Shown here in pieces: positions 1 to 61,987 of a DNA stretch of 64,000 nucleotides. The DNA is from Escherichia coli (GTDB lineage Bacteria > Pseudomonadota > Gammaproteobacteria > Enterobacterales > Enterobacteriaceae). Below the pieces are notes generated by a model, which did not search any database, was not told where the DNA came from, and was given only the letters and a program-made list of their open reading frames with translations. The stretch lies in NCBI RefSeq assembly GCF_024223415.1, contig NZ_CP100500.1; one strand, 5' to 3'. The stretch's first letter is position 1. The number at the start of each line of letters is the position of its first letter. The translations under genes were made by a program, and so were the position numbers.

Positions 1-353
1 TTTATTTATGGGTGAAAATTTAGCTTTTTGTGCAAGTCATTAAATAGATACTTAAGTTATATTTCTGACTCTGCGGACAGTGAATAATTCATTATTCAGA
101 GTGAATAATAATGACCTGCCTTTAATTAGCAACTATTGGAAATACGTCGAAGTAGGTATATACGCCAGGATAAACCGATATATTTTTTATGGATATTCAT
201 TTTCCTTTAGCGGACTGTAAATTGCGGGGATATCGAACTTGTACTACTCATCTCAACACTCAAACAGATTTATGAATTTCGTTCATAACCCCTGACAAAT
301 CCTGCCGTCTAATCGAGCTCTTCTCTTTACGTTATGCTTCTCATGAACGATAA

Positions 354-3220
<2,867 letters not shown>

Positions 3221-3360
3221 CTATTATTTTAGCCACATTATTAGTAACAATGATAATCTGGCTGTATCGAAAATAATTCTAAACTTTCAGGAGATTTATT
3301 ATGAATAAACGTATCCTCACGATTGTGCCATTCTTCTTACCGATATTCTGACACATATCA

Positions 3361-4287: not shown

Positions 4288-4443
4288 TGTAAACCTTAAC
4301 TTAACACTGTGATAGATATTAGATCATTGATGATAACCAATACAAGTCATACTATTACGCCGTTCTCGATATGAACACGAATGCCAGTTGCGGATAATAG
4401 AAATGATATTTAAATCTGTTTAGGCAAATCCCCGGAGCTTGAA

Positions 4444-5364
4444 ATGAAAACTGTTTCGATAAAACACACTTACTGGGATATAGCTGCTGATATCTATTTC
4501 CCTGACGATTTTAATAGTGAAAAAAAGTATCCTGCCATTATCAGCGCCCATCCAATTGGAAGCTGCAAAGAACAGACATCGGGTAGTGTGTATGGTGCCG
4601 CCCTGGCAAAAGCTGGCTTTATCGTCATTGCTTTTGATGCCAGTTTTCAGGGAAGCAGCGGTGGGGAACCGCGTTATCTGGAAGATCCAACAATGCGAGT
4701 AAAAGACTTCAGCATTGTCGTTGATTACCTTACCAGCTTACCTTACGTTGATGCCGGGCGTATTGGTGTACTGGGTATTTGTGGTGGAGGTGGATATGCC
4801 ATTAATGCCGCAATGACAGAACGTCGAATTAAAGCTATTGGTACTGTCACGGGTGCAAACTACGGGCGTCTTATGCGTGAGGGATTTACAGCGTTTAATC
4901 CTATCGGAGCACTCGAAGCAATGGCGCAACAAAGAACAGACGAAGCTAACGGCGCAAAACTTCGCGTAGATGATTTACTCCCCTCTTCTCCGGATGCAGC
5001 TCTTGAAGCGGGATTAACAGAAATAGACCTTTTTGAAGCCACAGAATATTATCGTTCGCCACGAGGCTGTGCACCTAATGGGGTAAATCGTTCGCTATTC
5101 TCACATCAGACTGTTGCCGTGGGTTGGGATGCATTTCATCTTGCAGAAGTGCTGTTAACTCAACCAATAATGGTTGTGGTGGGCGATAGAGTGGGCGCAT
5201 TTGGTGCCTACCGTGACGGCTGCGAAATTATTGGCCGCGCTGCCTCAAAACATAAAGAGCTGGTCGTGGTTGAAGGTTATTCACATTACGACCTGTATGA
5301 TAAGCCAGAACCTGTGAAACAGGCACTCGATAAATTAATTCCTTTTTATAAAACACATTTGTAA
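4444..5364 (+). CDS. alpha/beta hydrolase (dienelactone-hydrolase-like), no signal peptide
   Basis: 306-aa ORF with IGVLGICGGGGYAINAAM nucleophile-elbow region and KELVVVEGYSHYDLYD C-terminal motif; homologous to the ORF at 24130-25266. Confidence 0.8.
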   Translation: MKTVSIKHTYWDIAADIYFPDDFNSEKKYPAIISAHPIGSCKEQTSGSVYGAALAKAGFIVIAFDASFQGSSGGEPRYLEDPTMRVKDFSIVVDYLTSLPYVDAGRIGVLGICGGGGYAINAAMTERRIKAIGTVTGANYGRLMREGFTAFNPIGALEAMAQQRTDEANGAKLRVDDLLPSSPDAALEAGLTEIDLFEATEYYRSPRGCAPNGVNRSLFSHQTVAVGWDAFHLAEVLLTQPIMVVVGDRVGAFGAYRDGCEIIGRAASKHKELVVVEGYSHYDLYDKPEPVKQALDKLIPFYKTHL

Positions 5365-5607
5365 TAATCTTACAGGGAGATCCCTTATCTCCCTGACATT
5401 TATCCTTTATTGACTACACAACAATAATAAAATTACTCAAAAAGAAATTTCATTAAAAAACAAAAAAGCAGCAACTCAATTATTAAGATTATTAGAAACC
5501 CTTTAAAGGGATTATAAATAAAGCCAGAACTCTTGGTTCCAAAGCTGGCAACAACTAACCAGTTAAAACATACGCATCAAAATCAGATAAACATTTGAGG
5601 TATTGTT

Positions 5608-6750
5608 ATGACAAATAAACACCCATCATTGTTTTCTCCTTTTATGCTGACAGAAAAAATAAAGCTACGTAATCGTATCGTTATGGCTCCTATGACGACC
5701 TGGTCAGCGAATCCTGATGGAACCATCTCTGAGCAAGAACTCGAATTTTATAAACGTCGCTCACAAAATGTTGGTTTAGTAATAACAGGATGTACCTATG
5801 TCACGCCAAGCGGCATTGGGTTTACTCATGAATTTGCCGCGTATGACGACCGTTTCATTAACAGCCTTGAAAAGTTAGCAGCGGCAGCCAAAAGTGGGGG
5901 TGCTCCGGCTATTTTGCAGGTTTTCCACGCCGGTAATAAAGCCATCCCGGAGCTTGTACCAACTAACGATGTTATTAGTGCCAGCGCATCAAGCGTAAAA
6001 TCTGGTGACTTTATGAAGAGAGTGGTACAAAGCAGGGAAATGACTGAAAACGAAATTCAGGAAACCATTAGAGCATTCGGAGATGTCACAAAAAGGGCGA
6101 TTAAAGCAGGTTTTGATGGCATTGAACTTCATGGTGCGCACGGATTCCTTCTACAGAATTTCTTCTCCCCTCTATTTAACCAGCGTAATGACCGATGGGG
6201 AGGAGATCTCGAAGGACGTATGCGCTTCCCGCTGGCCGTATTACAGGAAGTAAAAAATGTAGTCTATGAATATGCGACAAAGCCCTTTGCCATCGGTTAC
6301 AGAATATCTCCTGAAGAATCTGCAACAGGGGGGCTGCGGATAGAGGATACTTATAAACTCCTTGATCGGCTCATTTCATCCGGTATTTCGTATATACATA
6401 CCTCGCTGGTCAGTATTAACGATAGCTACCCTGTTGAGTCGCCAAATGGCCCCCGAACTATTGAATTGATTTTAAATCATATTGCAGGCAGAGTGCCGGT
6501 AATCGCTGCAGGTAAAATACGCACACCGTCTCAGGCTCAAGAAGCAATTTCCACTGGCCTGCCACTTGTTGCGATCGGTAAAGGGCTGGTGATAAATCCA
6601 GAATGGGTGACTTTAGCTGAATCAGGTAGAGGCCATGAAATTCAAACAACCCTTAATCCACAACTTGTTCCTGAATTAACCATTCCGGATAAACTATGGG
6701 ATCAAATTCAGGCATCGAAAGGAACTGGCTGGTTTCCGTTAATGGATTAA
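5608..6750 (+). CDS. NADH:flavin oxidoreductase (Old Yellow Enzyme family)
   Basis: 380-aa ORF; LFSPFMLTEKIKLRNRIVMAPMTT N-terminus and HGAHGFLLQNFFSPLFNQRNDRWGG core are characteristic of the family. Confidence 0.85.
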   Translation: MTNKHPSLFSPFMLTEKIKLRNRIVMAPMTTWSANPDGTISEQELEFYKRRSQNVGLVITGCTYVTPSGIGFTHEFAAYDDRFINSLEKLAAAAKSGGAPAILQVFHAGNKAIPELVPTNDVISASASSVKSGDFMKRVVQSREMTENEIQETIRAFGDVTKRAIKAGFDGIELHGAHGFLLQNFFSPLFNQRNDRWGGDLEGRMRFPLAVLQEVKNVVYEYATKPFAIGYRISPEESATGGLRIEDTYKLLDRLISSGISYIHTSLVSINDSYPVESPNGPRTIELILNHIAGRVPVIAAGKIRTPSQAQEAISTGLPLVAIGKGLVINPEWVTLAESGRGHEIQTTLNPQLVPELTIPDKLWDQIQASKGTGWFPLMD

Positions 6751-7223
6751 ATATCTATTACTCTCCCGAGAGTAAAACTATCAAATCAATGAGTAACCGA
6801 TACAGCCTCACAAATTCTTTCAAATAATTAACCCGTCACTGCGGCACGTTCTCTCATAAGGCGTGCCTGCAGTGTAATCCAGTATGTATCCGGCTTAGTT
6901 GACGGTTTAATAGAGCTCAATTCCTCGCCCAGGTTACCAACAACGATATCTTGTATAACACCCCAGGAGATACGACATTATGATGAGATGCGATATGCTC
7001 CTCAGCGCCAATCAACGCCAGGACTGGGCCAGTCTTGAGATCAGACTCATTCCCGGAACTGACTTCAGGCGACATATATCAATGACGTTGGTGCAATAAA
7101 AGATAGCCGATGTAATACATCTATTCAAATTTGTGATACATGTCAAAAAATTGGTTGACCAAACTCGTTATTTATATAAGGGCACTTACGAAGTGCGCTC
7201 TTTTTTAAAGCGAGGAAGTACCA

Positions 7224-7325
7224 ATGAAAGAGAATAAAGTACAACAAATCAGTCATAAACTGATTAATATCGTTGTTTTTGTCGCAATTGTAGAATACGC
7301 CTATTTATTTCTCCATTTCTATTAA
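7224..7325 (+). CDS. ykgR: small hydrophobic protein, 33 aa (YkgR-like)
   Basis: ATG with GAGGAAG ribosome-binding site; encodes MKENKVQQISHKLINIVVFVAIVEYAYLFLHFY. Position upstream of ykgM matches K-12 as recalled. Confidence 0.55.
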   Translation: MKENKVQQISHKLINIVVFVAIVEYAYLFLHFY

Positions 7326-7648
7326 TAACGGCAATAAACTGTTCACTTCAGTGATATTTAAAATATGCATCCTCTCCCTTTTTGTAAGTAATTATTATAT
7401 CCGTGGGAGAGGAATACACGCTGTCAGGTAATCAATCATACTGCGATAAATCATCGGCCAGTAAAGTGGAGATAACCTCAATCCATACTCTCAGCGAAAC
7501 TATCATCAATCACTCATCCAGGCGTTTATGGGAGCGTCGCCAATGGCTGTTAACAATGCCAGACTTCCCCGTTGCGGAAATTCCACATACCACTAATGGT
7601 CACAGGGATTGGGTGTTGAAATGATCCGGATGAGCATGTATCTTTATG

Positions 7649-7666
7649 GTTATGTTATAACATAAC
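7649..7666. promoter_or_regulatory. Zur box (perfect 18-bp palindrome GTTATGTTATAACATAAC)
   Basis: Perfect palindrome 9 bp upstream of the ykgM start codon; matches the known Zur operator class and the known zinc regulation of ykgM-ykgO. Confidence 0.7.
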
Positions 7667-7674
7667 AGGTAAAA

Positions 7675-7941
7675 ATGATGAAGCCCAATATCCATCCTGA
7701 GTATCGTACTGTGGTGTTCCACGACACCAGTGTTGATGAGTACTTTAAAATCGGCTCGACTATCAAAACAGACCGTGAGATTGAGCTGGATGGCGTAACG
7801 TATCCGTACGTAACAATTGATGTCTCTTCGAAATCGCACCCGTTCTATACAGGGAAGCTGAGAACAGTGGCATCAGAAGGAAATGTTGCACGGTTCACCC
7901 AACGTTTTGGTCGTTTTGTTAGCACGAAAAAGGGGGCATGA
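7675..7941 (+). CDS. ykgM: ribosomal protein L31 paralog (zinc-independent)
   Basis: 88-aa ORF ([19 protein letters not shown]...) with L31 type B signature; Zur box upstream. Confidence 0.9.
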
Positions 7942-8081
7942 TGAAAGTCCTTAACTCTCTGCGTACCGCAAAAGAACGCCATCCAGACTGTCAGATTGTG
8001 AAGCGAAAAGGACGGCTGTATGTGATTTGTAAATCTAATCCACGTTTTAAGGCCGTTCAGGGTCGTAAGAAAAAACGTTGA
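7941..8081 (+). CDS. ykgO: ribosomal protein L36 paralog
   Basis: 46-codon [49 protein letters not shown]; start overlaps the ykgM stop (ATGATG). Below the track size cutoff; read from sequence. Confidence 0.85.
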
Positions 8082-9096
8082 TTTAAAATTCGACGAATTA
8101 ACGATATTTGTCTGATTAATAATCAGACCGGATTAATGTTGGTGTATTTATTACACCAGCATTAATTTTCCTGGGGATGTATCTTCCTGTTCATTTAAGG
8201 TCAACTGCCTGACGTTTCTCTCCGAATATTCCATTATATTAATGTTGACTTGTTGACCAGCTTCGCCCCTGTATGCTGGCATCAACCCTCTTTTAGACTG
8301 AACACGCCACTCAGTTTCCTCCCTTTGCGACGCAGCCTGCATTTACACTCAAACTGTTAAGATGATAAATGTGGTAAATCTGTTGGTACTGACATAAAAA
8401 CGTTTACGCCACAGGAACGGCCTGATCCACCGGTAACCCCATCGCCGACGTTCGAGTGCCAGTTAGAGTAACGCGCACAGATGACTGAATGCAGTGCCCT
8501 GGCAAAGAGGCCATCGTTCCTGTGACAACTGGCAGTCTTCGTTTAACTTCACTTAATTTGGCTCTTAGGGGGCTTACCGGACAGATGACATACTTACACC
8601 TGTTTAATTTTTCATCACTTATTGGGATGAACACCCATAACCATTTTGTGCGGCATGTTAATCCATTAAAACACCTTACTGATTGGCAAATCATCTTTAA
8701 TTATGACTCATGATAGTTTTATATTCTATTTCTTATCATTTAAACTTGTTTTTTTACTAGTCCATTACACAACATATTAAGACTATTCCTAACACCTCAG
8801 GGCAAAGTTCCTGGCTAATATAAAATGCAAGTAAGAATTGAACGTTATATTGCCAATAACCTTATGAAACTGAATGTCTTTTTCTTCTTATCAAAAAAGC
8901 AATATTTTCATTTTTTGTAAATATTGACTTAACCATGGAATTCATTTTCTGTTCACATATTGACACTCATCAGGAAAAAAACATAAATTTAAACCTAATC
9001 GAAATAATTAAAACTTAATCTCGTTTAACCTATATTGATATGTGCTACGTATCTTATTTACTTCCGATTTACTAAAGAAACTGAATGTACCTGTAA

Positions 9097-9708
<612 letters not shown>

Positions 9709-9782
9709 ACTCCAGGCAAGTTAGTTTTGAAAAATGACTCACTGGGACATCACGTCCTCAATTCAACTCGGGAAGAAATACA

Positions 9783-10370
9783 ATGAAAAAAAAGGTTCTG
9801 GCAATAGCTCTGGTAACGGTGTTTACCGGCATGGGTGTGGCGCAGGCTGCTGACGTAACAGCTCAGGCTGTAGCGACCTGGTCGGCAACAGCCAAAAAAG
9901 ACACCACCAGTAAGCTGGTTGTGACGCCACTCGGTAGCCTGGCGTTCCAGTATGCCGAAGGCATTAAAGGTTTTAACTCACAGAAAGGTCTATTTGACGT
10001 GGCTATCGAGGGTGACTCAACGGCTACCGCCTTTAAACTGACCTCACGTCTTATCACCAACACATTAACCCAGTTGGATACCTCAGGTTCCACACTGAAT
10101 GTGGGCGTGGATTATAACGGCGCGGCAGTCGAAAAAACTGGCGATACCGTGATGATCGATACCGCCAACGGCGTACTGGGCGGCAACCTTAGCCCGCTGG
10201 CAAACGGTTACAATGCCAGCAATCGTACCACCGCACAGGATGGTTTCACTTTCTCCATCATCAGCGGCACCACCAATGGTACCACCGCAGTAACCGACTA
10301 CAGCACTCTACCGGAAGGCATCTGGAGCGGCGACGTTAGCGTACAGTTCGACGCGACCTGGACCAGTTAA
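9783..10370 (+). CDS. ecpA: E. coli common pilus major subunit
   Basis: 195-aa ORF with signal peptide and Thr/Gly-rich pilin sequence; position in the operon. Confidence 0.9.
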
Positions 10371-10427
10371 TCTCTCTGATGTACCAGCAGGGGTAGCCCC
10401 CCTGCTTTATTCCTGGACGGAATTGTT

Positions 10428-11096
10428 ATGAAAAAGCACCTTCTGCTTCTCGCTCTGCTGTTATCCGGAATATCTCCGGCCCAGGCGCTGGATGTCGGCG
10501 ATATATCATCGTTTATGAACAGTGACAGCAGCACGCTGAGCAAAACGATCAAAAACAGTACCGACAGTGGTCGCCTTATCAATATCCGTCTCGAACGGCT
10601 CTCTTCACCGCTTGACGACGGGCAGGTTATCTCAATGGACAAGCCGGACGAGTTGCTACTCACTCCCGCCAGCTTGCTGCTACCCGCCCAAGCCAGCGAA
10701 GTGATCCGCTTCTTCTATAAGGGACCAGCAGATGAAAAAGAGCGCTACTACCGCATTGTCTGGTTTGATCAGGCCCTCAGTGATGCGCAGCGCGATAATG
10801 CCAACCGCAGCGCTGTGGCCACTGCTTCCGCCCGCATCGGCACCATTCTGGTCGTCGCCCCCCGCCAGGCAAACTACCACTTTCAGTACGCCAACGGCAC
10901 CCTGACAAATACAGGAAATGCGACGCTGCGGATCCTCGCCTACGGCCCCTGCCTGAAAGCCGCCAATGGTAAAGAGTGTAAAGAGAATTACTACCTGATG
11001 CCGGGCAAGTCGCGTCGTTTTACCCGCGTGGACACGGCGGATAACAAAGGACGGGTTGCACTTTGGCAGGGTGATAAGTTCATTCCCGTGAAATAG
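10428..11096 (+). CDS. ecpB: common pilus periplasmic chaperone
   Basis: 222-aa ORF with signal peptide; second structural gene of the operon. Confidence 0.85.
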
Positions 11097-11121
11097 ATAG
11101 CTGTGCAGATGGATAACGACA

Positions 11122-13647
11122 ATGCCTTTACGACGGTTCTCCCCAGGACTGAAAGCCCAGTTTGCCTTCGGCATGGTCTTTTTGTTCGTTCAGCCCGATG
11201 CCAGCGCTGCTGACATAAGTGCGCAGCAAATAGGTGGGGTGATTATTCCGCAGGCCTTCAGTCAGGCGCTTCAGGACGGCATGAGCGTCCCGCTCTATAT
11301 TCATCTCGCCGGTAGCCAGGGTCGCCAGGACGATCAGCGAATCGGCAGCGCTTTTATCTGGCTGGATGATGGACAGCTACGCATCCGGAAAATACAGCTG
11401 GAAGAGAGTGAAGATAACGCCAGTGTCAGCGAACAAACTCGACAGCAGCTGATGGCTCTGGCGAACGCCCCGTTCAATGAGGCCCTTACCATCCCCCTGA
11501 CTGACAACGCGCAGCTGGATCTCAGCTTGCGCCAACTGCTGCTGCAGCTGGTGGTCAAGCGCGAAGCGCTGGGCACCGTACTACGCTCACGTAGCGAAGA
11601 CATCGGGCAGTCCAGTGTTAACACCCTCAGCAGTAATCTGAGCTATAACTTGGGCGTCTATAACAACCAGTTGCGTAACGGCGGGAGCAACACATCCAGC
11701 TATCTGTCGCTGAATAACGTTACTGCGCTGCGCGAACATCATGTGGTGCTCGACGGCTCGCTGTACGGGATCGGTAGCGGTCAACAGGACAGTGAATTAT
11801 ATAAAGCGATGTATGAACGCGATTTTGCCGGTCACCGATTTGCCGGTGGAATGCTCGACACCTGGAACTTGCAGTCCTTAGGGCCGATGACCGCCATTTC
11901 AGCAGGGAAGATTTACGGCCTTTCCTGGGGAAACCAGGCCAGCTCCACCATCTTCGACAGCAGCCAGTCAGCCACGCCAGTGATCGCCTTTTTACCGGCG
12001 GCGGGTGAAGTACATCTCACCCGTGATGGGCGGCTACTAAGCGTTCAGAACTTCACTATGGGCAATCATGAAGTGGATACCCGGGGTCTACCGTACGGTA
12101 TTTACGATGTGGAAGTTGAGGTGATCGTTAACGGTCGCGTGATCAGCAAACGCACCCAGCGGGTCAATAAGCTGTTTAGCCGGGGGCGCGGCGCCGGTGC
12201 ACCACTGGCGTGGCAGATATGGGGCGGTAGCTTTCATATGGATCGCTGGTCGGAAAACGGGAAAAAGACGCGACCAGCTAAAGAGAGTTGGCTGGCAGGT
12301 GCCTCGACCTCCGGCTCACTGAGTACGCTTAGCTGGGCGGCAACGGGATATGGATACGATAATCAGGCGGTGGGTGAAACCCGTCTGACGCTGCCGCTTG
12401 GGGGAGCGATCAACGTTAACCTGCAAAATATGCTGGCCAGTGACAGCTCATGGAGCAACATCGCCAGCATCAGCGCCACTCTACCGGGAGGCTTTAGTTC
12501 GCTGTGGGTTAACCAGGAAAAAACCCGCATTGGCAATCAATTGCGACGTAGCGATGCCGACAACCGTGCAATCGGCGGCACACTCAACCTGAACTCACTG
12601 TGGTCGAAGCTGGGCACATTCAGCATCAGCTACAATGATGACCGCCGTTACAACAGCCATTATTACACGGCAGATTACTATCAAAATGTCTACAGCGGTC
12701 CCTTTGGTTCGCTTGGCCTGCGGGCCGGTATTCAGCGCTATAACAACGGCGACAGCAACGCCAATACAGGGAAATATATCGCTCTCGATCTCTCGCTACC
12801 ACTGGGCAACTGGTTTAGCGCAGGGATGACTCATCAAAACGGCTACACCATGGCAAACCTGTCAGCACGCAAGCAGTTTGATGAAGGGACCATTCGCACT
12901 GTTGGTGCCAATCTGTCACGAGCCATCTCCGGCGATACCGGTGATGACAAAACTCTCAGTGGTGGGGCGTATGCACAGTTCGACGCTCGCTACGCCAGCG
13001 GAACGCTGAACGTCAATAGCGCGGCGGACGGCTACGTCAATACCAACTTGACCGCCAATGGCAGCGTCGGCTGGCAGGGTAAAAACATTTCTGCCAGCGG
13101 GCGGACTGATGGCAACGCTGGGGTGATATTCAACACCGGGCTGGAGGACGACGGTCAGATCAGCGCCAAAATCAACGGGCGGATTTTCCCGCTTAACGGC
13201 AAGCGTAACTATCTCCCGCTCTCTCCCTATGGAAGATATGAGGTGGAGTTACAGAACAGCAAAAACTCACTCGACAGTTACGATATCGTCAGCGGCCGCA
13301 AAAGTCATCTGACTCTCTATCCAGGCAATGTCGCTGTCATTGAGCCAGAGGTGAAGCAGATGGTTACCGTCTCCGGTCGTATCCGTGCGGAAGACGGCAC
13401 ACTGCTGGCTAACGCACGGATTAACAACCATATCGGCCGAACCCGAACCGATGAAAACGGCGAGTTTGTCATGGACGTGGATAAGAAATACCCCACTATC
13501 GATTTTCGCTACAGTGGCAATAAAACCTGCGAAGTGGCACTGGAACTCAACCAGGCGCGCGGTGCCGTCTGGGTCGGTGATGTGGTCTGCAGCGGCCTCT
13601 CATCGTGGGCGGCGGTGACGCAGACAGGAGAAGAGAATGAGAGTTAA
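11122..13647 (+). CDS. ecpC: common pilus outer-membrane usher
   Basis: 841-aa ORF with signal peptide; size and position fit the usher. Confidence 0.9.
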
Positions 13648-50653: not shown

Positions 50654-51421
50654 GTGCCTGGTTTGAAGATTACGCTTTTGCAGCAACCACTGGTGTGGAT
50701 GGATGGCCCTGCCAACCTGCGTCATTTTGATCGTCAACTGGAAGGTATTACCGGGCGCGATGTGATCGTTCTACCGGAGATGTTTACCAGCGGCTTTGCC
50801 ATGGAAGCGGCTGCTTCGTCGCTAGCACAAGATGACGTAGTGAACTGGATGACAGCCAAAGCGCAGCAGTGCAATGCGCTGATTGCAGGCAGTGTTGCAT
50901 TACAAACGGAGTCTGGTTCGGTTAACCGCTTTTTGCTGGTTGAGCCGGGCGGCACGGTACATTTTTATGATAAGCGTCATCTGTTCCGCATGGCAGATGA
51001 GCATCTGCATTATAAAGCGGGCAATGCGCGAGAGATTGTGGAATGGCGCGGCTGGCGTATTTTGCCGTTGGTGTGCTACGACTTACGTTTTCCGGTGTGG
51101 TCGCGCAATCTCAACGATTATGACCTCGCCATCTACGTTGCCAACTGGCCTGCTCCGCGCTCTCTGCACTGGCAGGCATTGCTGACGGCCCGCGCGATTG
51201 AGAATCAGGCGTATGTGGCGGGATGCAATCGCGTCGGCAGCGATGGCAACGGCTGCCATTATCGCGGTGACAGCCGGGTGATTAATCCACAGGGCGAGAT
51301 TATCGCTACTGCCGACGCGCATCAGGCAACGCGCATTGATGCGGAGCTGTCGATGGCGGTGTTAAGGGAATATCGCGATAAGTTTCCGGCATGGCGGGAT
51401 GCGGATGAGTTTAGGTTGTAG
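50654..51421 (+). CDS. yafV: nitrilase-family omega-amidase
   Basis: Carbon-nitrogen hydrolase family ORF; start taken at GTG 50654 ([11 protein letters not shown]...), preceded by an AAGGAG ribosome-binding site. Confidence 0.85.
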
Positions 51422-51479
51422 TGAGTGGGTGTTGTGTTTAGGGCTGGGGAGAGTCGGGGAAGACTACGAAAGCCCGCTC

Positions 51480-51849
51480 TCCTGCGACCACTTTTATCAT
51501 AGGAGTGTGGAAGTGCTTTTCCATCAATCGCGATGACGTCTTTGTCATTTGATGAATGGCAGTCACGCATCCAGTTAATAAAGCACTCGTGAAATTTTGC
51601 AGGACTGATACAGGATACAACTCTGGCAATGGTATCGTGAACAGGGATACCATTTTCAAAATCACCATATTGTTTTAAAAAATCGAGATGTGTTTCCCCA
51701 AAATCCTCTATATCTTCCCAACCTTCTACACCAGAAATAACGGCACAAATAGTCAACAGAAGAATATCTGACAATTTATGTTCCACTTTCCAGGCTTGAC
51801 TGTAATCGGGAATAATAGAAATATGTTCCATCAATTTTTTAAGTTCCAT
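51480..51849 (-). mobile_element. H-repeat (ISAs1-family) transposase N-terminal fragment
   Basis: N-terminal ~120 residues ([40 protein letters not shown]...) match H-repeat-associated proteins; similarity is lost after about residue 123 and the ORF runs into the yafV 3' end. Has its own AAGGAG ribosome-binding site. Confidence 0.7.
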
Positions 51850-52152: not shown

Positions 52153-53103
52153 TTAGTTTTTATATTTCTCAATATATTCTTTTGAAAGGATTCGCGCCTT
52201 TTCAAACTCTTCAGGAGTTAATCTATTTTCCATCTTCAATTTATATTGAACACTTTTATCAAGTCCATGAGCGTATGCGGCACTGAACCAGGCATATGCC
52301 TTTTTATTATCGAGTGGTAACTCTTTCGTGCCTACGGAATAGATTAATGCAAGATTATGTTGTGCAACAGGATCACCATGTGTGGCTGACTTTCTTAACA
52401 GTTCTATTGCTTTATATTTATTTACAGTAATCCCACCCAGTCCTTCATAGTAAAAGATACTTAGTGCTGATTGTGCTTTTATGAAACCTTGACTTGCCGA
52501 TTTATCATACCAAAAGGCGGCTTTATTATAATCCTTTTTAATAATAACGCCTTCATAATAGAGTCGCCCTAAATGATACTGAGCAACCTTATCCCCTTGC
52601 TCCGCAGCGATACGATACCACTTATCTGCCAGATCTTTTTTATTAGTCTCATCATATAGTAAAGCAAGGTTAGTTTGAGCCGTAACTAATCCAGAATTTG
52701 CAGCTTTATTTAACCACGCTATGGCCTTACCATAATCTCTTATCACGCCACTCCCTTTACTATATAATACTCCTAAGTTTCCCTGCGCTTCTGGAAAACC
52801 TTTTTCAGCTGCCATTTGATAACATTCAAATGCTTTTTCATAATTTTGAGACACCCCATAACCATGAGCATACATAACACCGAGGTTATACTGAGCCTCT
52901 GTCAGCCCCTGTTTTGCTGCAAGCGAGTACCAATATACTGCATCTTTATAACTCTGGATTCCTTCAGAACCACTTCGATATAACTCCGCGAGTTTAAATT
53001 GCGCAGTAGCATCTCCCTTATCAGCATCTTTTCTTATATATGTCATTTTATTGGAGGCTGCTGTGTCTTCTGTCACCCCAATTGCAACAGGAATACTCAA
53101 CAC
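52153..53103 (-). CDS. Sel1-repeat (TPR-like) protein; candidate immunity protein for the upstream Rhs toxin
   Basis: About eight tandem ~36-aa Sel1-type repeats (AQxNLGxxYxxGxGVxxDYxKAxxWYxKAA). Low GC, 45 bp downstream of the Rhs stop. Start codon uncertain (GTG at 53103 or internal ATG). Confidence 0.8.
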   Translation of the reverse strand: MLSIPVAIGVTEDTAASNKMTYIRKDADKGDATAQFKLAELYRSGSEGIQSYKDAVYWYSLAAKQGLTEAQYNLGVMYAHGYGVSQNYEKAFECYQMAAEKGFPEAQGNLGVLYSKGSGVIRDYGKAIAWLNKAANSGLVTAQTNLALLYDETNKKDLADKWYRIAAEQGDKVAQYHLGRLYYEGVIIKKDYNKAAFWYDKSASQGFIKAQSALSIFYYEGLGGITVNKYKAIELLRKSATHGDPVAQHNLALIYSVGTKELPLDNKKAYAWFSAAYAHGLDKSVQYKLKMENRLTPEEFEKARILSKEYIEKYKN

Positions 53104-53147
53104 TTCAAAAAAAAAACATCACAACAACACACATTAATATTTTTCGA

Positions 53148-56100
53148 TTATTTTTTATCGGCATCTTTTTTATCATCACCTTTAAATTTATCTACCGCTT
53201 CACTAGAAGTCATGTCAGTAATATAATCTCCAAATGCATTTTCAGGCACAAAGGGCAATTTACCCAAAGTTGCACCTAATAATTCCTCCGCTCCTGTATC
53301 AGCAGCAGCATAAACACCAGATTTAAAATCCCCTCCCTTACTTAAAAATGACAATCCCATTTTCAAAGCTATTTTCTCAACAAACGTTTTTCCCGCTCCC
53401 CAAGAACCACCTAAAGCACATAGCGCCAACTCGGATTTATCCGGCATCTTATGATCAGACATATAGTCAGTCGTAGCAACCGCACCACATGAACTAAGAC
53501 TTCCAATTGCTATCTCCCCCCATGTAAGAGTCCCCCCTTCTAATGCAGCCGCACTTGCTACTGGCTCGGTAAATACTACTCCGGCAATAACAGGAGGCAG
53601 TAAAGCCCATCCTTTTACATAATCGTCTAATGGATTATACACTCCACGCATACTTGAAAAATCATCCAACGCTTTAAATTTTTCTTCATCTGACAGGTTC
53701 GGGGCGAATCCAACATTAGCCCCCTGCATAGTGTTATAATAATTAGTTCCAAATATCATTTGCGGCGTTACATTAGCTAACCCCAACGGATCTATATGTT
53801 CAATAGGATTGAGTGGGTACTGGTAAGGATTTAATCCTCCTTCCAGCCCAATCGGGTCCTGGGTGATATACCGTCCCTGCAACGGGTCATAGTACCGGTG
53901 ACGGTTGTAATACAGCCCCGACTCCTCATCATACTGCTGTCCCGGCAGACGGTACGGCTGTTGCAGGTGCTGCGCGCTGGTTTCGCCCAGCAGGTTTCCC
54001 CACTCGTCATACTCCCCCTGCCACGCCGTTTCCCCTTCCGGGCTGATGAGCGCCTGCGGCAGTCCCCGGTGGTCGCAGTGGTAAAGATGAAGTTTCCGCT
54101 CCGGGATGTATTCCGCCTCCAGCTGCGCGGCCATCTGCTCCGCCGTCAGCCCGCACTGCGCAAGCCATGCCTCACTCTCCGCACTCACCGCTCCCGCGCG
54201 CAGTTCCCGCTCCAGCCTCCCCAGCATCACCGACAGCTCCGCCGGTAGCGTCACACCCGTGTCCTCTTGCAACACCTCCGCCAGGCTCCGGTGCCGCGCC
54301 TTCGCCTGTTCGCCATTCTCTGTTTCGATTCTCAGGAGCGGCGTGAAGCTCCCCGGCTGGTATACCGTCTGGATACGCGTGGTGCCGGTCTGTATCGTCG
54401 TCAGCCTGTCGCCGTCCCACCCGTACCATGTCACCTCCGGTTTACGCGACAACGACATCCACCCCGTCAGGTCACGCTCCCGCCGCCATACCCGTTTTCC
54501 CGTCCGGCGGCCCAGCGGGTCATAGAGGTAACGGCTCTCCACCTGTGGTTCGCCGTGCTGTATCCGCGTGTAGAACACCAGGCGGTGCTGGCTGTCGTAG
54601 TGGTAGTGGTGGGTCCGCTCGTCGTGCATCCGGATAACCCCTTCCGGGATGCGGTCCGTCTTCTCCGCCAGCCTGCCGTATTCATCGTGGCGGTAGACAT
54701 AGTGCGCATCTTCCGCGATGCGGTTATCCGGCCACGCCGTGAGCGTGCTGTCCGGGTGCAGTTCCGGGTCCGGCAGCCGGTTTCCCGCCGGGTCTGTTGC
54801 ATACGGGATATCGATATCCAGGTTCGCCGCCGTGGTGTGGACGCCCGTCAGCCTTCCCGTGTCACTGTAACGGTACTCCCGGCTCTCCTGCGGGCCGCTG
54901 ATGCGGATTAGCTGTCCGTTGTCGTTCCAGTCGTAGTCACGGTCAAGCTGCGGGAGGTTCAGGTGCCTGCTCCGGAGCTGGCCGCTGGTATTCCAGGCGG
55001 TGGCAAGTTCATATGCCTCCCCGCCGAAGCTGCGGGCCGTCTCACGGTGCAGCCGGTCCCGCGTGTACTCGACCAGTGGCGTTCCGCCCAGCTTCATCCC
55101 CGCAAGATAACCGCTGCCATACGTCAGCCACTCTACCGGCGGCAGACCGTCCGGCTCCTGACGGGTCGCCAGTCCCTGTTCGCTGTACGCGTGCCCCGTC
55201 TCATGCTCCCACAGCATCTCCCCCGTCTCCGGGTTCTCCACCGTCTGCCGTTCGCCCGTCAGGCGGCCTTTATCGTCATAGCCGTAGTGGACCGCCACAC
55301 GGTGGCCTTCACTGGTATGGCTGATGGTGGTTAACCACCCGTGCTCATCATACTGCCACTGCTCCGCCGGGTCGCCGTTCACCGTCCGGTGCGTGATGCG
55401 GTCCGACGCATCGTAATGCCAGAGGGTGATAAGTCCCTCATCTTCACTCTGCGTGAGTTTTCCGGTCAGGTCATAGTGGTAACGTTGCGTCCGCCCGTCA
55501 AAACCGCGCTGTTCAGTCAGCCTGTCCACCGGGTCATACCGGAACGTGGACTGGCTGCCGTTCTCGTTGGTCAGCACGGTGATGCGCCCGGCAGCGTCAT
55601 ACCCCATGCTGCGCGTAAGACCGCCTTCCGTCACACTCACCGGACGCCCGCGTTTATCATATTCGATGGTGCTGCATTTACCGTCCGGTGATATCGTTGC
55701 TGTCAGGTCGCCTGCGGCGCTGTACTCATAACGGATTTCACGCCCCTGCGCATCCTTCTGACTGACCAGTTGCCCACGCGGGTTATAACTGCTGTAAGTG
55801 CTGATGCCTTCTTCCCGGTGAACGGCGATTTGTTGACCGTACCGGTCGTACTCATACCGCGTCGTGTACCCCGAGCAGTCCGTAAAGGCCAGCAGTTGAC
55901 CGTAACGGCTCCATGCCATCTGTTTTGTACTGCCCGTCGCATCCTCTATCCCTGTCGGCAGCTCACTCGCCGGGTCATCATAGCTGTAACTCGTCGTCTC
56001 ACCGCTGCGTGAGGTCTCCGCCGCCAGCCTTCCCTTCTCATCATACTCCCGGCTGCTGCGAAGCCCGTCCGGGTACGTCACCGACGTCACCTGCCGCTGG

Positions 56101-57536
56101 CTGTTATAGCCATACCGTACCGTCCTGCCGTCCGGCCCCGTCACCGCCGTCACCGCACCCGACGCCATATGCAGGCTGTACTCCGTCCGCTGCCCCGCCG
56201 CATCCGTCTGTGCCTTCAGCCTCCCCGCCTCATCATACTCGCTGCGGGTGATGCTCCCGTCCGCATGCTCCTTCTTCACCACCCGCTTCAGGCCGCCTTC
56301 GCCCTCCGTGTACAGCACCTCCCGCCGGTTCAGGCTGTCCGTGATGGTCACACGGTCCTGCCCGTACTCAAAGCGGTAGTCCAGCCCCTCCGGGTTGACC
56401 TGCTCCGTCACCCGACCGGTATCATCATACCGGTAGCGGCTCTCCGGCCTCCCTGCATAATGGTGCGCCACCATCCGCCCCGCGTGCTCCGCATCATAAG
56501 TAAACCCGCGCACCTGCGTCCCGCTGCGGTCATACACCGCCCGCAGTTCTCCGCTGGCCGTGTACGTGTAGCGCGCCAGCGGCGCAGTCGGCTGTTCATC
56601 CGGGTATGCCGGGTCGTGTGTCAGCCACACCGCCTCCAGCCGGATACCGTTATCGGCACCGTACTCTGTACCGGTGGGCAGCGTGTCGGGGAAAACCTGA
56701 GAAGAGGAAACAGAACGGGGACTGGCCGGGGAAGATAAGGAAGACTCGCGCTGTTTACGGAAGGCTTCCGCCCGCTGCGCCTGTGTGGTCAGCGCCAGGT
56801 GAAAACGGCGGCCCGCGCCGTCCGTCACCCCCGTCACCGCGCCCGCCACGTCACCCTCCGCCGCCCTGTGAAAGGCCAGCGTCCGACCAAAGCCATCCAC
56901 CACGCCCGTCAGCACCCGGTATGCGGGCGGCTCCGGCGGCAGCACCTCGTCCGCCTCCGGCACCCGCTCCGGCCAGCTGAGCACCAGCCACTGCCCGGTT
57001 GTGCTGACAGCCATCATATAGGTGTGTGGACTCAGACGGACCGCTTCCGGCAGCGCCCGCCAGAGCCGGGCCAGCGGGTGGTCTTTGTGTTGTTTCAGCA
57101 CCCCACCCCTTGCCAGCCAGAGTGACTCGCTGCGGCTGTAGCTTATCTCGCCGGGAAACAGCGGCTCAAAGTGAATGCTCCTGCCGCCGTTGTCGTTGAG
57201 TATCAGTTCCCGCTCATGAATCTGTAAGCGGATATCAAAGGGGGCTTTCCAGCCGGGGCCAAACACCCCCACCGGCGCGGGCGTCCTGGTCCGGTAACTG
57301 CTGTAGGCACGGGAAAGAATGAACGGCAGCGGGCCGGGCAGCGCAAGGTCCGTCTCGCCCGGCAGCACCTTCGCACCCAGTAGCGGGTTCACCGGGTTAG
57401 CATAGGTAATCCCTCCCGGACACACCGAGCAGGCCACTCCCGTCGGCGCACCTATCAGCACCCCCGCTGAACCCTGCACAATATCCAGTCCCTTGCGGGT
57501 CATATCACCCTGCCGCGCCGCCGGTTTTCCGCCCAT
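53148..57536 (-). CDS. rhs: Rhs-family polymorphic toxin with N-terminal PAAR-like motif and variable C-terminal domain
   Basis: 1462-aa ORF: N-terminus [12 protein letters not shown], long YD-repeat core, core-terminal PxxxxDPxGL motif (DPIGLEGG...IDPLGL), then a 209-aa low-GC extension. AAGGA ribosome-binding site. Confidence 0.9.
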
Positions 57537-57611: not shown

Positions 57612-59753
57612 TCAAAATTGCCGCATATCCGGCATTCCGGGGGGTAAATCTTTCGGCACAGGCGCATCCGGTACAGGTTGTGTGGCACCACAGTTCCAGT
57701 TAATCACCGGCGCATCACCGTTCACATCCGACTCCCCTTCCAGATGAATGTGCGTACCATTAAGAAATATGCTTCCGTCCTTCGTCAGCACCAGCCTTGC
57801 CTTACCACAGCAGAGTTCAAGATGCTCACCGGCAGAATAAACTGCTGTTTGTCCGGTGTTTTCCTTCATCGTCTTGCCCACCGAGAAGGTGACGTTATTC
57901 CCTACATTGACGCTGTAGCCCATTCCCACCATCAGTGATTTATGCAGCCCTACCTGTGAGGACTGCAACAACGCCACCGAGGTATTCATAATGCCGCCTA
58001 CCGTCGTCTGATACGCCACACCCACCGTCAGCGCACGAATGATCCCCACCTTTTCAACCTGGTTTGATCCCACTTTGATAATCTGGTTACTGCCTACCGT
58101 TTCCACCTGGTTGACACCAACCGTCTGTATCTGATTAACGCCAATGTTCTGGATCTGGTTATTGGTAACGGTGATCGCCTGGTTGTTACCTATTTTTTCG
58201 GCATGGTTGTTTATCACATCCGTGGTGCGGTTATTCAGCACCTCGGTGTTCATGTTCTTCTGCGCGTGGATGTAGACCTGTTCTTTCCCTGTCGCATCGT
58301 CAAACTTCAGTTCATTAAACCCGCTGCCCTTATAGGTTTTCGAACGAATGGTCATCTGCGTCTTTGTTCCCGGCAGGCTGCCGGGTGTGCGGTTTTCCTG
58401 GTGGTAGGTGCGCCCCATAATGATCGGCTGGTCCGGATCGCCGTTGAGGAAGTCCACAATCACCTCCTGACCCACGCGCGGTATCGCAAGGTTACCGAAT
58501 CCGGTGCCTGCCCACGCCTGTGCCACACGGATCCAGCATGAACTGTCCTGGTTTGACGGGTTATAACGGTCCCAGTTAAATTTCACCCGCACGCGGCCAT
58601 GTTCATCACAGAAGATTTCCTCGCCTGCCGGTCCCGTCACGACGGCGCTCTGCGGGCCGTCCACCAGCGGTTTCAGCAACGGCTGTGGTCGCCATGTTCT
58701 GTCTGCCGGTATTACCGCAAAATGGTTATCCAGCGTGGTGCCTGAACCCCTGCGTCCCGGTACCGCCTGCGGCTGTTCGCCGTGAAGATCGCTCGCCACC
58801 ACCTGCCATTCCCGGTTCAGGTTCGCCTGCGGATGCCCCGTCAGCACAATTTGCCGTCCCGGCCATATCTCCGGCGAACGGCTTGTTCCGCGCGCCACTT
58901 CTGCGTTGTTGCGCCAGCCATCCATCTGCCAGCGGGCAAAGTTCTGCCCGTGGGCGCCCTTGAAACGTCCGGGGTAGTCATACACTTCATACTGTGTGCG
59001 CTGGTAATCCTGGTACTGGCCTTCCTGATCAAAACGCCCTGCCCAGCCGGGTCGTTTAAAGGTGTAGTCTTTGGTCACCACGGAAGAAGGGCGGATTTGT
59101 GCGCTGTAGCGAAACTGGCTGATGCAGAGGGTGCTTACCTCGGTACGGGTGTTCGGATTCCAGGGGATCTCAAAGGACTCCGGCAGATAACGCACGGTAT
59201 CGCACAGGACCAGGCTTTGGTCGGTACTTTTTTGCGCGTGCTCCTCATAAAAGAAGATGCCTTCCTCCGCCGCCATCCGGCACAGGAAATCGTAATCAGT
59301 CTCACCGTACTGGACACAAAACTCACGGGAAGGATGTGGCTCGCTGAACAGCGGGCTCCACTCGGTCACCCCGTTTTCCTGCAATATCGTGCCGAGGATG
59401 CTTTCGATGTCCTCATTCTGGAAGATACGGAAGTTCTGGCGCAGCCCTGTGCGCCACAGCGGCGGGCATACCTTCATGCTGTACAGCTTCTGGTTTTTGT
59501 CGTTCTCCCCCAGTTCAAACCAGGTCACCACACCTTTCACCCGGCGCTGTACGTCATCGCCCTGCCATATCGTCAGGTAGGCCATTTTGTCGAGGATCTG
59601 CTGGAATTCAAGGGAGAGAAACTGCTGGCTGACCAGAGAGAGATCGAGGGAAAAAAGCGAAGAGAGTGACTGGTTCAGATGAAAGGAGACCACCGCAAAA
59701 GCATCCGGTGGCAGGCCGTCCACTTCCAGCGTGAAACGTAATCCGGTTGACAT
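57612..59753 (-). CDS. vgrG: type VI secretion spike protein VgrG
   Basis: 713-aa ORF recognised as VgrG from the N-terminal sequence and size; C-terminal repetitive (beta-helix-like) region. Confidence 0.9.
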   Translation of the reverse strand: MSTGLRFTLEVDGLPPDAFAVVSFHLNQSLSSLFSLDLSLVSQQFLSLEFQQILDKMAYLTIWQGDDVQRRVKGVVTWFELGENDKNQKLYSMKVCPPLWRTGLRQNFRIFQNEDIESILGTILQENGVTEWSPLFSEPHPSREFCVQYGETDYDFLCRMAAEEGIFFYEEHAQKSTDQSLVLCDTVRYLPESFEIPWNPNTRTEVSTLCISQFRYSAQIRPSSVVTKDYTFKRPGWAGRFDQEGQYQDYQRTQYEVYDYPGRFKGAHGQNFARWQMDGWRNNAEVARGTSRSPEIWPGRQIVLTGHPQANLNREWQVVASDLHGEQPQAVPGRRGSGTTLDNHFAVIPADRTWRPQPLLKPLVDGPQSAVVTGPAGEEIFCDEHGRVRVKFNWDRYNPSNQDSSCWIRVAQAWAGTGFGNLAIPRVGQEVIVDFLNGDPDQPIIMGRTYHQENRTPGSLPGTKTQMTIRSKTYKGSGFNELKFDDATGKEQVYIHAQKNMNTEVLNNRTTDVINNHAEKIGNNQAITVTNNQIQNIGVNQIQTVGVNQVETVGSNQIIKVGSNQVEKVGIIRALTVGVAYQTTVGGIMNTSVALLQSSQVGLHKSLMVGMGYSVNVGNNVTFSVGKTMKENTGQTAVYSAGEHLELCCGKARLVLTKDGSIFLNGTHIHLEGESDVNGDAPVINWNCGATQPVPDAPVPKDLPPGMPDMRQF

Positions 59754-59962: not shown

Positions 59963-60481
59963 TTATGCTTCCAGCGGTGCGCGCCAGTCGTCGGCACCGG
60001 AGGTGCCAGATTTGACGTGTTCCCATTCAATTTTGCGGTAGGCCAGTGAAACTTCGAGCAACTGGGTGAACTCGCGTTTCGCCGGGTCCTGGCAATGCGG
60101 CATATGCAGTTTCATATCGACAATCGTCGAATCAGTCAGGCGGGTAGTGAAATAATGCTCCTGTTTGCCTTCCACAGAGGTACGCCACCAGTGAAGTTCA
60201 GTGGTTGGCAGCATTTCGCCGGAGGCCAGTGCGTTGTACATCAGCGGAACCGCTTTGTTCAGCGCCACGGTAAAAATGAAAGGCTTGTGAGCACGCTGAC
60301 CCGCAGGCTGACCGGACTGAGGATCGGTCGGGACAGTAACGTTATGCAGGAATTCCTGCACCAGCATCTCGTCTTCGTGCCCCTGCACATAGATGTTGCC
60401 GACAGAATCAGCGGTAAATGCACCTGCAGTAATATTTCCCTGGGTCTGACCAGTGATGGAGATATAACACGGTGTTGGCAT
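59963..60481 (-). CDS. hcp: type VI secretion tube protein Hcp
   Basis: 172-aa ORF recognised as Hcp from the translation; directly upstream of vgrG. Confidence 0.9.
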   Translation of the reverse strand: MPTPCYISITGQTQGNITAGAFTADSVGNIYVQGHEDEMLVQEFLHNVTVPTDPQSGQPAGQRAHKPFIFTVALNKAVPLMYNALASGEMLPTTELHWWRTSVEGKQEHYFTTRLTDSTIVDMKLHMPHCQDPAKREFTQLLEVSLAYRKIEWEHVKSGTSGADDWRAPLEA

Positions 60482-61177: not shown

Positions 61178-61678
61178 ATGAGCAAAAAATTTGAAGGCAG
61201 CGTCGCGCCTCGCGAGCGTATTAATATATCGTATGTCCCAAAAACAGATGGCCAGACGGCTGAAGTGGAACTTCCGCTTAACATGCTCGTTGTCGGCGAT
61301 ACCGGAAATACGCAGGAAACATCCTCACTGGATGAACGTCAGGCAGTTTCCGTTAACAAGCACAATTTCGGTGCAGTGATGGCTGAAGCAGCCATTGGCC
61401 TCAATTTTACCGTCCCCGCCACGCTGAAGGGAAGCACAACGGACGATGAGCTGAATGTGGCGCTGAATATCAAGTCACTGGATGATTTTTCACCAGATAG
61501 CGTGGCCCGGCAGGTTCCGGAAGTGAATAAATTGCTGGAACTGCGTGAAGCACTGACTGCACTGAAGGGGCCGATGGGTAACCTTCCGGCATTCCGTACC
61601 CAGCTCCAGGCATTGCTGGAAAATGAAGAGTCCCGCGAGCAGTTGCTCAAAGAAATCGGCCAGGTGAGCAATAAATAA
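61178..61678 (+). CDS. tssB: type VI secretion sheath small subunit TssB
   Basis: 166-aa ORF recognised as TssB (VipA family) from the translation. Confidence 0.9.
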   Translation: MSKKFEGSVAPRERINISYVPKTDGQTAEVELPLNMLVVGDTGNTQETSSLDERQAVSVNKHNFGAVMAEAAIGLNFTVPATLKGSTTDDELNVALNIKSLDDFSPDSVARQVPEVNKLLELREALTALKGPMGNLPAFRTQLQALLENEESREQLLKEIGQVSNK

Positions 61679-61712
61679 CCACCACTATTTCATTAAACAG
61701 GGTTATCCAGGC

Positions 61713-61937
61713 ATGACGGCACACAAAAATATCTCCGGGACATACCACCTCTCTGTTGCAGACATTCTGCAGGTGGTTTACCAGGTATGTTTCAGCCCGT
61801 CCGTTGAAATCAACCAGGATGGTGTGGCTGCGCTGATTACAACACTGGATCGCCGTATCAGTGATCTATTGGATGAGATTATCCATTTTTGTGAGTTTCA
61901 GCAGAGCGCGTCGCACTGGCAGCGCGTACTTCACTGA
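61713..61937 (+). pseudogene. diverged TssC-like internal fragment (74 codons)
   Basis: VAALITTLDRRISDLLDEIIHFCEFQQSASHWQRVL aligns with residues ~65-100 of the downstream TssC (VDSMIADIDERISRQMDVIIHAPAFQQVESFWRSL); different frame, diverged at DNA level. Confidence 0.45.
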
Positions 61938-61987
61938 CGGCGAAAAGCCGGTTTCAGAAACACAGCTAAAACAGAAGGATTTTCAGT

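Follow-up and report, generated by a model that had tools for sequence, protein, structure and literature searches.

We describe the C-terminal tip of an Rhs protein encoded in a 64,000-nucleotide stretch of an Escherichia coli genome (assembly GCF_024223415.1, contig NZ_CP100500.1; hereafter the window). The tip corresponds to Rhs residues 1254-1462 (209 aa, 22 kDa; 53151-53777, minus strand). We propose that it is the toxic cargo of a type VI secretion system (T6SS) Rhs effector, that it belongs to a small, unnamed family of two-part toxins and that it would act by collapsing the membrane potential, a model to which we give an even chance as a whole. The parts of the model are not equally firm. 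That the tip acts at the periplasmic face of the inner membrane, or within that membrane, is probable given the sequences of its relatives and their partner genes. That it kills by dissipating the membrane potential is at best an even call.

The NCBIfam RHS_core match ends at residue 1253, which defines the tip as the residues that follow. An earlier reading of the DNA letters alone (hereafter the sequence-only reading) had placed 209 residues after the core motif at exactly these coordinates and had described the segment as low in guanine plus cytosine (GC), and both statements are confirmed. The core and the tip have GC fractions of 0.636 and 0.411, and at third codon positions of 0.761 and 0.278 respectively, the last value being equal to that of the Sel1-repeat gene directly downstream (0.278). 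A query laid across the junction matched the core part in 2661 of 5426 complete E. coli genomes, of which only 32 extend into the tip. The core-only matches all end at or before window position 53776, marking a recombination boundary. Identity of the tip is at least 99 % in all 32 genomes and at least 99.7 % in the 20 of them listed. Together these observations show the domain boundary and support a horizontal origin of the tip.

About 30 relatives of the tip were found. All that are named come from Enterobacteriaceae (Escherichia, including Escherichia albertii, Salmonella, Buttiauxella and Superficieibacter) and are either orphan Rhs tips or the ends of Rhs proteins; several members are short fragments from sequencing-read assemblies. 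A phmmer search of 1.84 billion cluster representatives matched 13 proteins, two profile searches of a 5.8-billion-protein set matched 16-17, and scanning one genome for each of 100,044 species with an alignment of the N-terminal part of the tip added one further locus, in Superficieibacter. Because full-length Rhs proteins cluster by their core, these must be taken as minimum counts; even so, the family is clearly a small one. Its tips start right after the DPxGL motif.

The tips are built from two parts, a feature that the sequence-only reading had overlooked. We aligned 16 tips and divided them at the conserved motif YNPxxxYVKGW (tip residue 57). Identities on the two sides of this motif are uncoupled. 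The E. coli tip is 77 % identical to the relative P0004 in its N-terminal part and 27 % in its C-terminal part, and to P0005 the values are 75 % and 19 %. The reverse pattern is found between P0004 and P0025, which are 25 % identical in the N-terminal part and 83 % in the C-terminal part, and the first pattern recurs between P0012 and P0021 (94 % and 39 %) and between P0025 and P0020 (78 % and 35 %). The tip is thus composed of a 57-residue N-module and a C-domain of 135-152 residues that recombine independently. In E. coli the separately exchangeable N-module occupies tip residues 1-57, starting with ANVTPQ (53607-53777, minus strand), and the C-domain, presumably the toxic part, occupies residues 58-209 (15.6 kDa; 53151-53606, minus strand). 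The C-domain is 41 % Gly, Ala, Ser and Thr, ends in a mixed Lys/Asp tail and is predicted with low confidence to be all-helical. Two shorter tips carry the N-module signature (hhalign 85.8 %).

Despite their divergence, the C-domains form one superfamily: hhalign joins the profile of the E. coli clade to a profile of types A and B, the two commonest of the other types (defined below by the neighbouring gene), over 131 columns (98.8 % probability, E 1.4e-16). Most related C-domains are hydrophobic and rich in small residues. Charged residues make up 7-12 % of them, stretches free of charge extend to as many as 45 residues, and windows reach 1.87 on the Kyte-Doolittle scale. The invariant or nearly invariant columns of the family-wide alignments hold only Gly, Ala, Leu, Pro and Tyr, none of them suited to catalysis; of all columns, G129 and G141 alone are conserved in the 12-sequence as well as the 22-sequence alignment.

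The gene directly 3' of each tip varies with the type of C-domain and not with the N-module. Four unrelated types of candidate immunity protein are in this way paired with one C-domain superfamily, and every one of these proteins has predicted transmembrane (TM) segments at a Kyte-Doolittle value of at least 1.6 in a hydrophobicity scan. Type A (tips P0004, P0016/17, P0025 and P0022; loci L010, L003, L012 and L005) has an 81-82 aa two-helix hairpin with a Lys/Arg-rich C-terminus, whose gene overlaps the stop codon of the tip, by 4 nt where coordinates were checked. The hairpins of L010 and L012 are nearly identical by eye, and the N-modules of their toxins are only 25 % identical. Type B (P0013, P0019, P0028 and P0029; L004, L009 and L013) has a protein of 186-201 aa with two N-terminal helices, of which an 86-aa N-terminal homologue, probably truncated, is found in L014. 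Type C (P0005-like tips and Superficieibacter; L006) has a 94-aa hairpin. Type D (the E. coli-type tip, in the window and in L008, with a Salmonella Texas copy of the tip that is 79 % identical but fragmented) has Sel1-repeat genes. The positive C-termini of the hairpins would fit a topology with both ends in the cytoplasm, as reported for the CdiI immunity proteins of the ionophore toxins of contact-dependent growth inhibition (CDI) (PMC11630599).

The short tips in L003 and L013 are each directly followed by a Sel1 protein with an N-terminal TM segment. After its main rhs gene, the L003 locus (Salmonella, GCA_965263615.1, 4001-7361) carries a row of three orphan Rhs tips: a family member accompanied by its 81-aa hairpin gene, then a truncated tip, and last the short tip, which has the N-module signature only and is followed by its TM-anchored Sel1 protein.

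In the window the gene directly after the tip encodes a Sel1-repeat protein (52153-53103, minus strand; 316 aa from a GTG start, with Sel1/TPR-type matches), here in a short form without a membrane anchor. This gene is present in exactly 32 of the 5426 complete E. coli genomes, and all 20 of the listed tip accessions recur in the Sel1 list, showing strict co-occurrence of tip and Sel1 gene. No small open reading frame (ORF) with TM segments was found when we searched the interval from the tip to the Sel1 gene and the sequence beyond it. The Sel1 protein is treated here as the candidate immunity protein of the E. coli tip, an assignment suggested by gene order and co-inheritance. Between E. coli, Salmonella and Buttiauxella the Sel1 proteins share 36-37 % identity, and those at the Salmonella and Buttiauxella family loci have an N-terminal TM segment.

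The same anchor, also missed in the sequence-only reading, is found in other E. coli strains. In strain AR_0085 the annotated Sel1 protein has 337 aa, and its start lies 17 nt within rhs. Positive residues at its N-terminus precede a 22-residue hydrophobic stretch that passes the Kyte-Doolittle threshold of 1.6 for a TM segment. By the positive-inside rule this arrangement implies that the Sel1 repeats would face the periplasm.

Membrane action of the tip is suggested because its C-domain is homologous to much more hydrophobic relatives and because all candidate immunity proteins are predicted membrane proteins. Of all the evidence, these neighbouring genes tell the most. The proposed mechanism would proceed as follows. 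After self-cleavage at DPLGL, the 22-kDa tip, enclosed by the Rhs shell, would reach a neighbouring cell's periplasm with the VgrG spike. There the helical, small-residue-rich C-domain would engage the cytoplasmic membrane from the periplasmic side and most likely insert, pass ions and collapse the membrane potential. The N-module may aid insertion or targeting in the manner of CDI entry domains or, just as speculatively, may be a segment held in the Rhs shell. The producing cell would be shielded by the co-inherited Sel1-repeat protein, whose anchored repeats could, from their predicted topology, bind the toxin in the periplasm before it inserts.

The sequence-only reading had also suggested an undescribed membrane-acting toxin family, on the grounds of glycine-zipper-like spacing, amphipathic stretches and a lysine-rich tail. 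The suggestion is consistent with the hydrophobic homologues and the membrane-protein partners; the sequence arguments originally given for it are at chance level. Gly and Ala make up 23 % of the E. coli tip. The GxxxGxxxG motif does not occur in it, GxxxG occurs 3 times against 2.7 expected from shuffles, and the small-xxx-small-xxx-small pattern occurs 4 times against 5.7. In the four relatives checked, GxxxGxxxG is found once in P0004, twice in the Superficieibacter tip and not at all in the other two, none of these counts being significant against shuffles. The tail is mixed rather than lysine-rich, its last 14 residues combining 6 Lys with 5 Asp in a tip that is acidic overall (isoelectric point 4.55).

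Several further observations weigh, together with the chance-level zippers, against a pore-forming reading of the E. coli tip. The predicted helices of the tip have hydrophobic moments with z scores of -1.1 to +1.5 relative to shuffles, and are neither strongly hydrophobic nor amphipathic. Only one 19-residue window of the tip reaches a Kyte-Doolittle value of 1.5. The E. coli C-domain has 23 % charged residues, a grand average of hydropathy of 0.09 and a longest uncharged run of 15 residues; it is the most polar of the full-length C-domains, with no window at 1.6 or above. AlphaFold2, run with 17 and then 22 family sequences, produced models of helices only with mean predicted local distance difference test (pLDDT) values of 43.6 and 46.0, so that the structure prediction proposed in the sequence-only reading gave no confident fold. 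A Foldseek search of PDB with the second model had a best E value of 1.8, which is meaningless. The failure of the prediction would be compatible with a domain without a stable soluble fold and also with a shallow alignment. The partner gene is also ambiguous. L005 and L009 each contain a tip that adjoins a TM protein and, further downstream, a Sel1 gene as well; part of the Sel1 association could therefore be positional, or reflect leftover immunity genes at the ends of arrays. Since Sel1-repeat immunity is known for periplasmic enzymes, a Sel1 partner is not a specific pointer to a pore former. Lastly, the copy in the window carries a frameshift, described below, that removes the anchor of the Sel1 protein.

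An alternative explanation is that the tip is a periplasmic enzyme or inhibitor acting at the membrane surface without forming a pore, and that the Sel1 protein neutralises it by direct binding. Possible targets would be lipid II, peptidoglycan synthesis, lipoprotein or lipopolysaccharide transport, or phospholipids. We consider this explanation unlikely, though it is the main rival to the ionophore model. The polar and acidic character of the E. coli C-domain agrees with it, as does the use of Sel1-repeat proteins, PA5087 and PA5088, as the immunity proteins of the periplasm-acting phospholipase D T6SS effectors of Pseudomonas aeruginosa (cited in PMC7216683). So does a pair of cysteines, C98 and C121 of the tip (codons at 53484-53486 and 53415-53417). 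Both are conserved in the E. coli clade and in the two short tips (L003 and L013), all of them Sel1-paired, and in no other type; tips linked to a hairpin have just one cysteine. Such a pair might form a disulfide in the periplasm and would then suit a periplasmic protein stabilised in this way. The E. coli tip is an outlier within its own family: the most polar of the full-length C-domains, with two cysteines and with a repeat partner predicted to face the periplasm.

The tip also contains the string GGSWG, which follows the lipase pattern GxSxG. We rejected a lipase of the Tle type: the serine is kept in P0002 (GGSLG), but the corresponding positions read TGAFG, RGAFG, TGAAG and TGFLA in other relatives, TGAFG and RGAFG being from proteins 56-59 % identical over the aligned part. 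More generally, no candidate catalytic residue is conserved across the superfamily, no enzyme family was matched in Pfam, NCBIfam or PDB sequences, and the homologous C-domains pair with small two-helix membrane hairpins, which are typical of toxins neutralised in the bilayer. These points argue against an enzyme.

The searches behind these statements also bear on other identities. Pfam, searched up to E <= 10, did not match the tip, nor did NCBIfam or PHROGs, and PDB sequences gave only noise; these are the profile searches that the sequence-only reading had proposed, and they uphold its description of the tip as of unrecognised type. Pfam gave nothing for 11 family members either, apart from a match to LIP in one of them (E 7.6e-3). 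The ten-helix pore-forming domain of colicins (PF01024) was rejected as an identity: at E <= 10 Pfam assigned it to neither the tip nor any of the 11 members, and no colicin chain was among the PDB sequence matches. No description of this tip was found in the literature.

The same stretch of the tip, read as GSWGAGKT, fits the Walker A pattern GxxxxGK[ST], and the top PDB sequence matches of the tip are adenylate and cytidylate kinases (E 0.5-0.9, not significant). A first family profile, built from 11 sequences, matched the DhaL structure 3cr3_A with E 7e-4 over the C-terminal half only. These matches would suit a cytoplasmic nucleotide-binding toxin, P-loop kinase-like or Dak2/DhaL-like, with the N-module serving for entry. 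This alternative is very improbable, being largely refuted by non-conservation. The close relatives mentioned above read TGAFGAGKS and RGAFGAGKG, and more distant ones read GFLAPGRT, GALYPGRS and GILTEGRG. The Walker A lysine is thus replaced by arginine in most relatives (APGRT, YPGRS, TEGRG), and the Ser/Thr and the preceding glycine pattern vary as well. We rejected the kinase matches, and with them a P-loop NTPase or kinase, because the P-loop lysine is not conserved. The DhaL match was rejected because it disappeared when the profile was enlarged to 17 sequences, and Pfam Dak2 matched neither the tip nor the 11 family members. Dak2 domains are marked by an Asp-rich N-terminal metal-binding motif, which has no counterpart in the family. 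In addition, the candidate immunity proteins are all membrane proteins or predicted to face the periplasm, and none is cytosolic.

The tip is part of a T6SS island that adjoins yafV-ivy-fadE-lpcA, a segment of the E. coli chromosome, with an aspV tRNA on the other flank in a matching strain. On the minus strand the genes are ordered Hcp, VgrG, Rhs, Sel1-repeat gene and a remnant of an ISAs1 transposase. The Rhs ORF (53148-57536) is intact and encodes 1462 aa. Its core, residues 1-1253 (53778-57536), combines a weak PAAR-like N-terminus (PAAR_motif, residues 2-29, E 0.17), a clear DUF6531 domain (Pfam, E 1.5e-18) and a YD-repeat shell. NCBIfam RHS_core spans it from end to end with 2554 bits, YD repeats are matched too, and the Rhs_assc_core match covers residues 1176-1253. 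The core ends in the putative C-terminal self-cleavage motif DPIGL-x17-DPLGL, read from the translation (Rhs residues 1227-1253, with DPLGL at 1249-1253; 53778-53858). By analogy with the aspartyl-protease site of Rhs proteins such as Tse5 (PMC10684867), cutting after the last leucine of DPLGL would free the tip.

The VgrG spike protein is encoded immediately upstream of rhs (57612-59753, minus strand; TIGR03361, E 1.3e-188), followed by the Hcp tube protein (59963-60481, minus strand), taken from the ORF list and supported by the annotation of the equivalent gene in AR_0085 as Hcp. Beyond Hcp lie TssB, TssC and TssE (61178-63883, plus strand), assigned by reading their translations. The adjacency of Hcp, VgrG and Rhs makes VgrG-borne delivery of the tip plausible, although the PAAR match of the Rhs N-terminus is weak. 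On the other side, the low-GC cassette formed by toxin and Sel1 gene is ended by the ISAs1 remnant directly after it (51322-51849, minus strand; NF033564, E 7e-35). The remnant covers positions 1-96 of the 314 profile positions, the remainder being out of frame, and an incomplete pseudogene is annotated at the same place in other strains. A scan for promoters and terminators gave no signal above shuffles.

The frameshift in the window, which the sequence-only reading did not report, lies in a poly-T tract (53107-53116, minus strand). Tracts of 9 or 12 T keep the Sel1 gene in frame, and the window has 10 T. The result is a 19-aa leader ORF (53105-53164, minus strand) that overlaps the rhs stop and that most strains read in frame as the N-terminal TM anchor of Sel1, plus a separate, anchorless 316-aa Sel1 protein. 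From the spacing of the tip and Sel1 matches, 15 of 20 strains have 9 T, 4 have 10 T and 1 has 12 T, the length read directly in AR_0085. The 10-T tract could be either a homopolymer error of sequencing or assembly, or real slippage that switches the location of the Sel1 protein on and off.

Two other copies of the cassette are of interest in their own right. In AR_0085 (L001, NZ_CP029741.1, 5295-10630) the T6SS in front of the tip/Sel1 pair has decayed, VasL being a pseudogene, VgrG shortened and Rhs only 368 aa long; the cassette seems to have outlived its delivery machine as an orphan. The sole copy labelled as plasmid-borne (L015, NZ_CP104632.1, pHNAH212872-2, 1-12071) lies alongside yafV, ivy, fadE and lpcA, and is therefore a chromosomal segment that was either captured by a plasmid or misassigned. 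The Rhs ORF there stops 119 nt short of where Sel1 begins, suggesting that the tip is frameshifted.

It is conceivable that the cassette is inactive or decaying in the strain of the window while the family as such is real, so that the toxin is not deployed or the cell is unprotected. The loss of the Sel1 anchor through the 10-T frameshift and the ISAs1 remnant abutting the cassette point in this direction, as do the decayed T6SS with its 368-aa Rhs in AR_0085 and the fragmented Salmonella Texas copy. We nevertheless hold such decay to be doubtful. The 1462-aa Rhs ORF is intact beside VgrG, Hcp and sheath genes, the tip is conserved at 99.7 % or more in the 20 listed genomes, and the in-frame 9-T form prevails. 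The 10-T state may itself be an artefact, one-base homopolymer errors being common in assemblies.

The build of the tip resembles that of the CDI ionophores, represented by the CdiA-CT of E. coli EC93 and its relatives, which have an exchangeable N-terminal entry domain and a five-helix C-terminal ionophore domain (Halvorsen et al. 2024, PMC11630599). Their CdiI immunity proteins are two-helix hairpins of 72-100 aa with both ends in the cytoplasm, and the toxin family has no database designation (PMC11630599). Both are two-part, predicted-helical toxins that end a large polymorphic delivery protein, with an N-terminal unit exchanged independently and a C-domain rich in small residues, and the 81-94 aa hairpins of types A and C match CdiI in size. 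In contrast to the CDI ionophores, the E. coli tip is borne by Rhs and T6SS rather than CdiA, lacks their GxxxGxxxG motif, is paired with a 316-337 aa Sel1 protein rather than a hairpin and is not known to depend on a receptor. No CdiA was among the 13 phmmer matches, a search that involved no direct profile comparison with CDI ionophore sequences. A stronger form of the analogy would make the tips the Rhs/T6SS counterpart of the CDI ionophores, with N-modules as entry domains that recognise target inner-membrane proteins and drive insertion of the C-domain, and with susceptibility dependent on the receptor. We regard this form as improbable. If true, one toxin fold would be countered in four ways, three of them through unrelated proteins in the membrane and one through a Sel1-repeat protein that binds it in the periplasm.

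Among Rhs proteins the closest comparison is Tse5 (PA2684) of Pseudomonas aeruginosa, an effector with a C-terminal fragment, about 16 kDa in size, that depolarises the inner membrane and does so preferentially from the periplasmic side (PMC10684867). The Tse5 shell (8cp6_B) is the nearest solved homologue of the Rhs core (E 1.7e-120, residues 294-1072) and outranks other solved Rhs proteins. The two proteins share the Rhs shell, the DPxG...DPxG self-cleavage motif and possibly a short PAAR-like N-terminus, which is matched only weakly here, and the 15.6-kDa C-domain is close in size to the Tse5 fragment. Unlike Tse5, the tip has an extra 57-residue N-module, and its candidate immunity protein is a Sel1-repeat protein. 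No PDB sequence match to the Tse5 tip (residues 1169-1317) was obtained at E <= 10 with the tip or the family profiles, in a set that holds Tse5 as separate fragments (8cp6_B is the shell of 1121 aa) and in which the presence of the full C-terminal fragment is unconfirmed. Tse5 may be taken, by analogy, as a precedent for an Rhs shell carrying a pore former.

Ssp6 of Serratia marcescens belongs to an ion-selective pore-forming T6SS effector family that is restricted to Enterobacteriaceae and is toxic from the periplasm (PMC6889166). Its immunity protein Sip6 is a small protein with two TM helices, encoded by a gene that overlaps the toxin stop by 4 nt (PMC6889166). The tip family is likewise limited to Enterobacteriaceae and free of recognisable domains, and in type A it has a gene for a two-helix candidate immunity protein with the same 4-nt overlap where coordinates were checked. 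In contrast to the free-standing Ssp6, the tip is Rhs-borne. The phmmer search of the representative library, made without direct use of the Ssp6 sequence, revealed no similarity to Ssp6. The Sel1 partner itself resembles PA5087/PA5088, as well as Sel1 candidates beside other E. coli effectors, in being encoded directly after the effector and in its predicted orientation towards the periplasm. The tip differs from the phospholipase D systems in lacking phospholipase motifs, and the Sel1 protein here has an N-terminal anchor that looks uncleaved.

Rhs tips of unknown function were carried by 19 of 32 Salmonella serotypes in one survey (PMC11669294), and Salmonella surveys list such tips without assigning them a function. 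Such tips are common and a single unnamed one is therefore unsurprising. The tip represents a new family of sequences in a system of well-known kind, unusual in combining a two-part, Rhs-borne build with four unrelated membrane-associated partners. The family is useful because it is small and well delimited, its two parts are clear, its compartment of action can be tested, and a single homologous toxin domain is paired in it with four non-homologous types of candidate immunity protein. If confirmed, it would be a second family of Rhs-borne membrane toxins beside Tse5, and such tips could be annotated in E. coli and Salmonella genomes. It would also offer a natural system for studying how unrelated immunity proteins neutralise the same fold, and a test of whether T6SS membrane toxins use exchangeable targeting modules as CDI toxins do.

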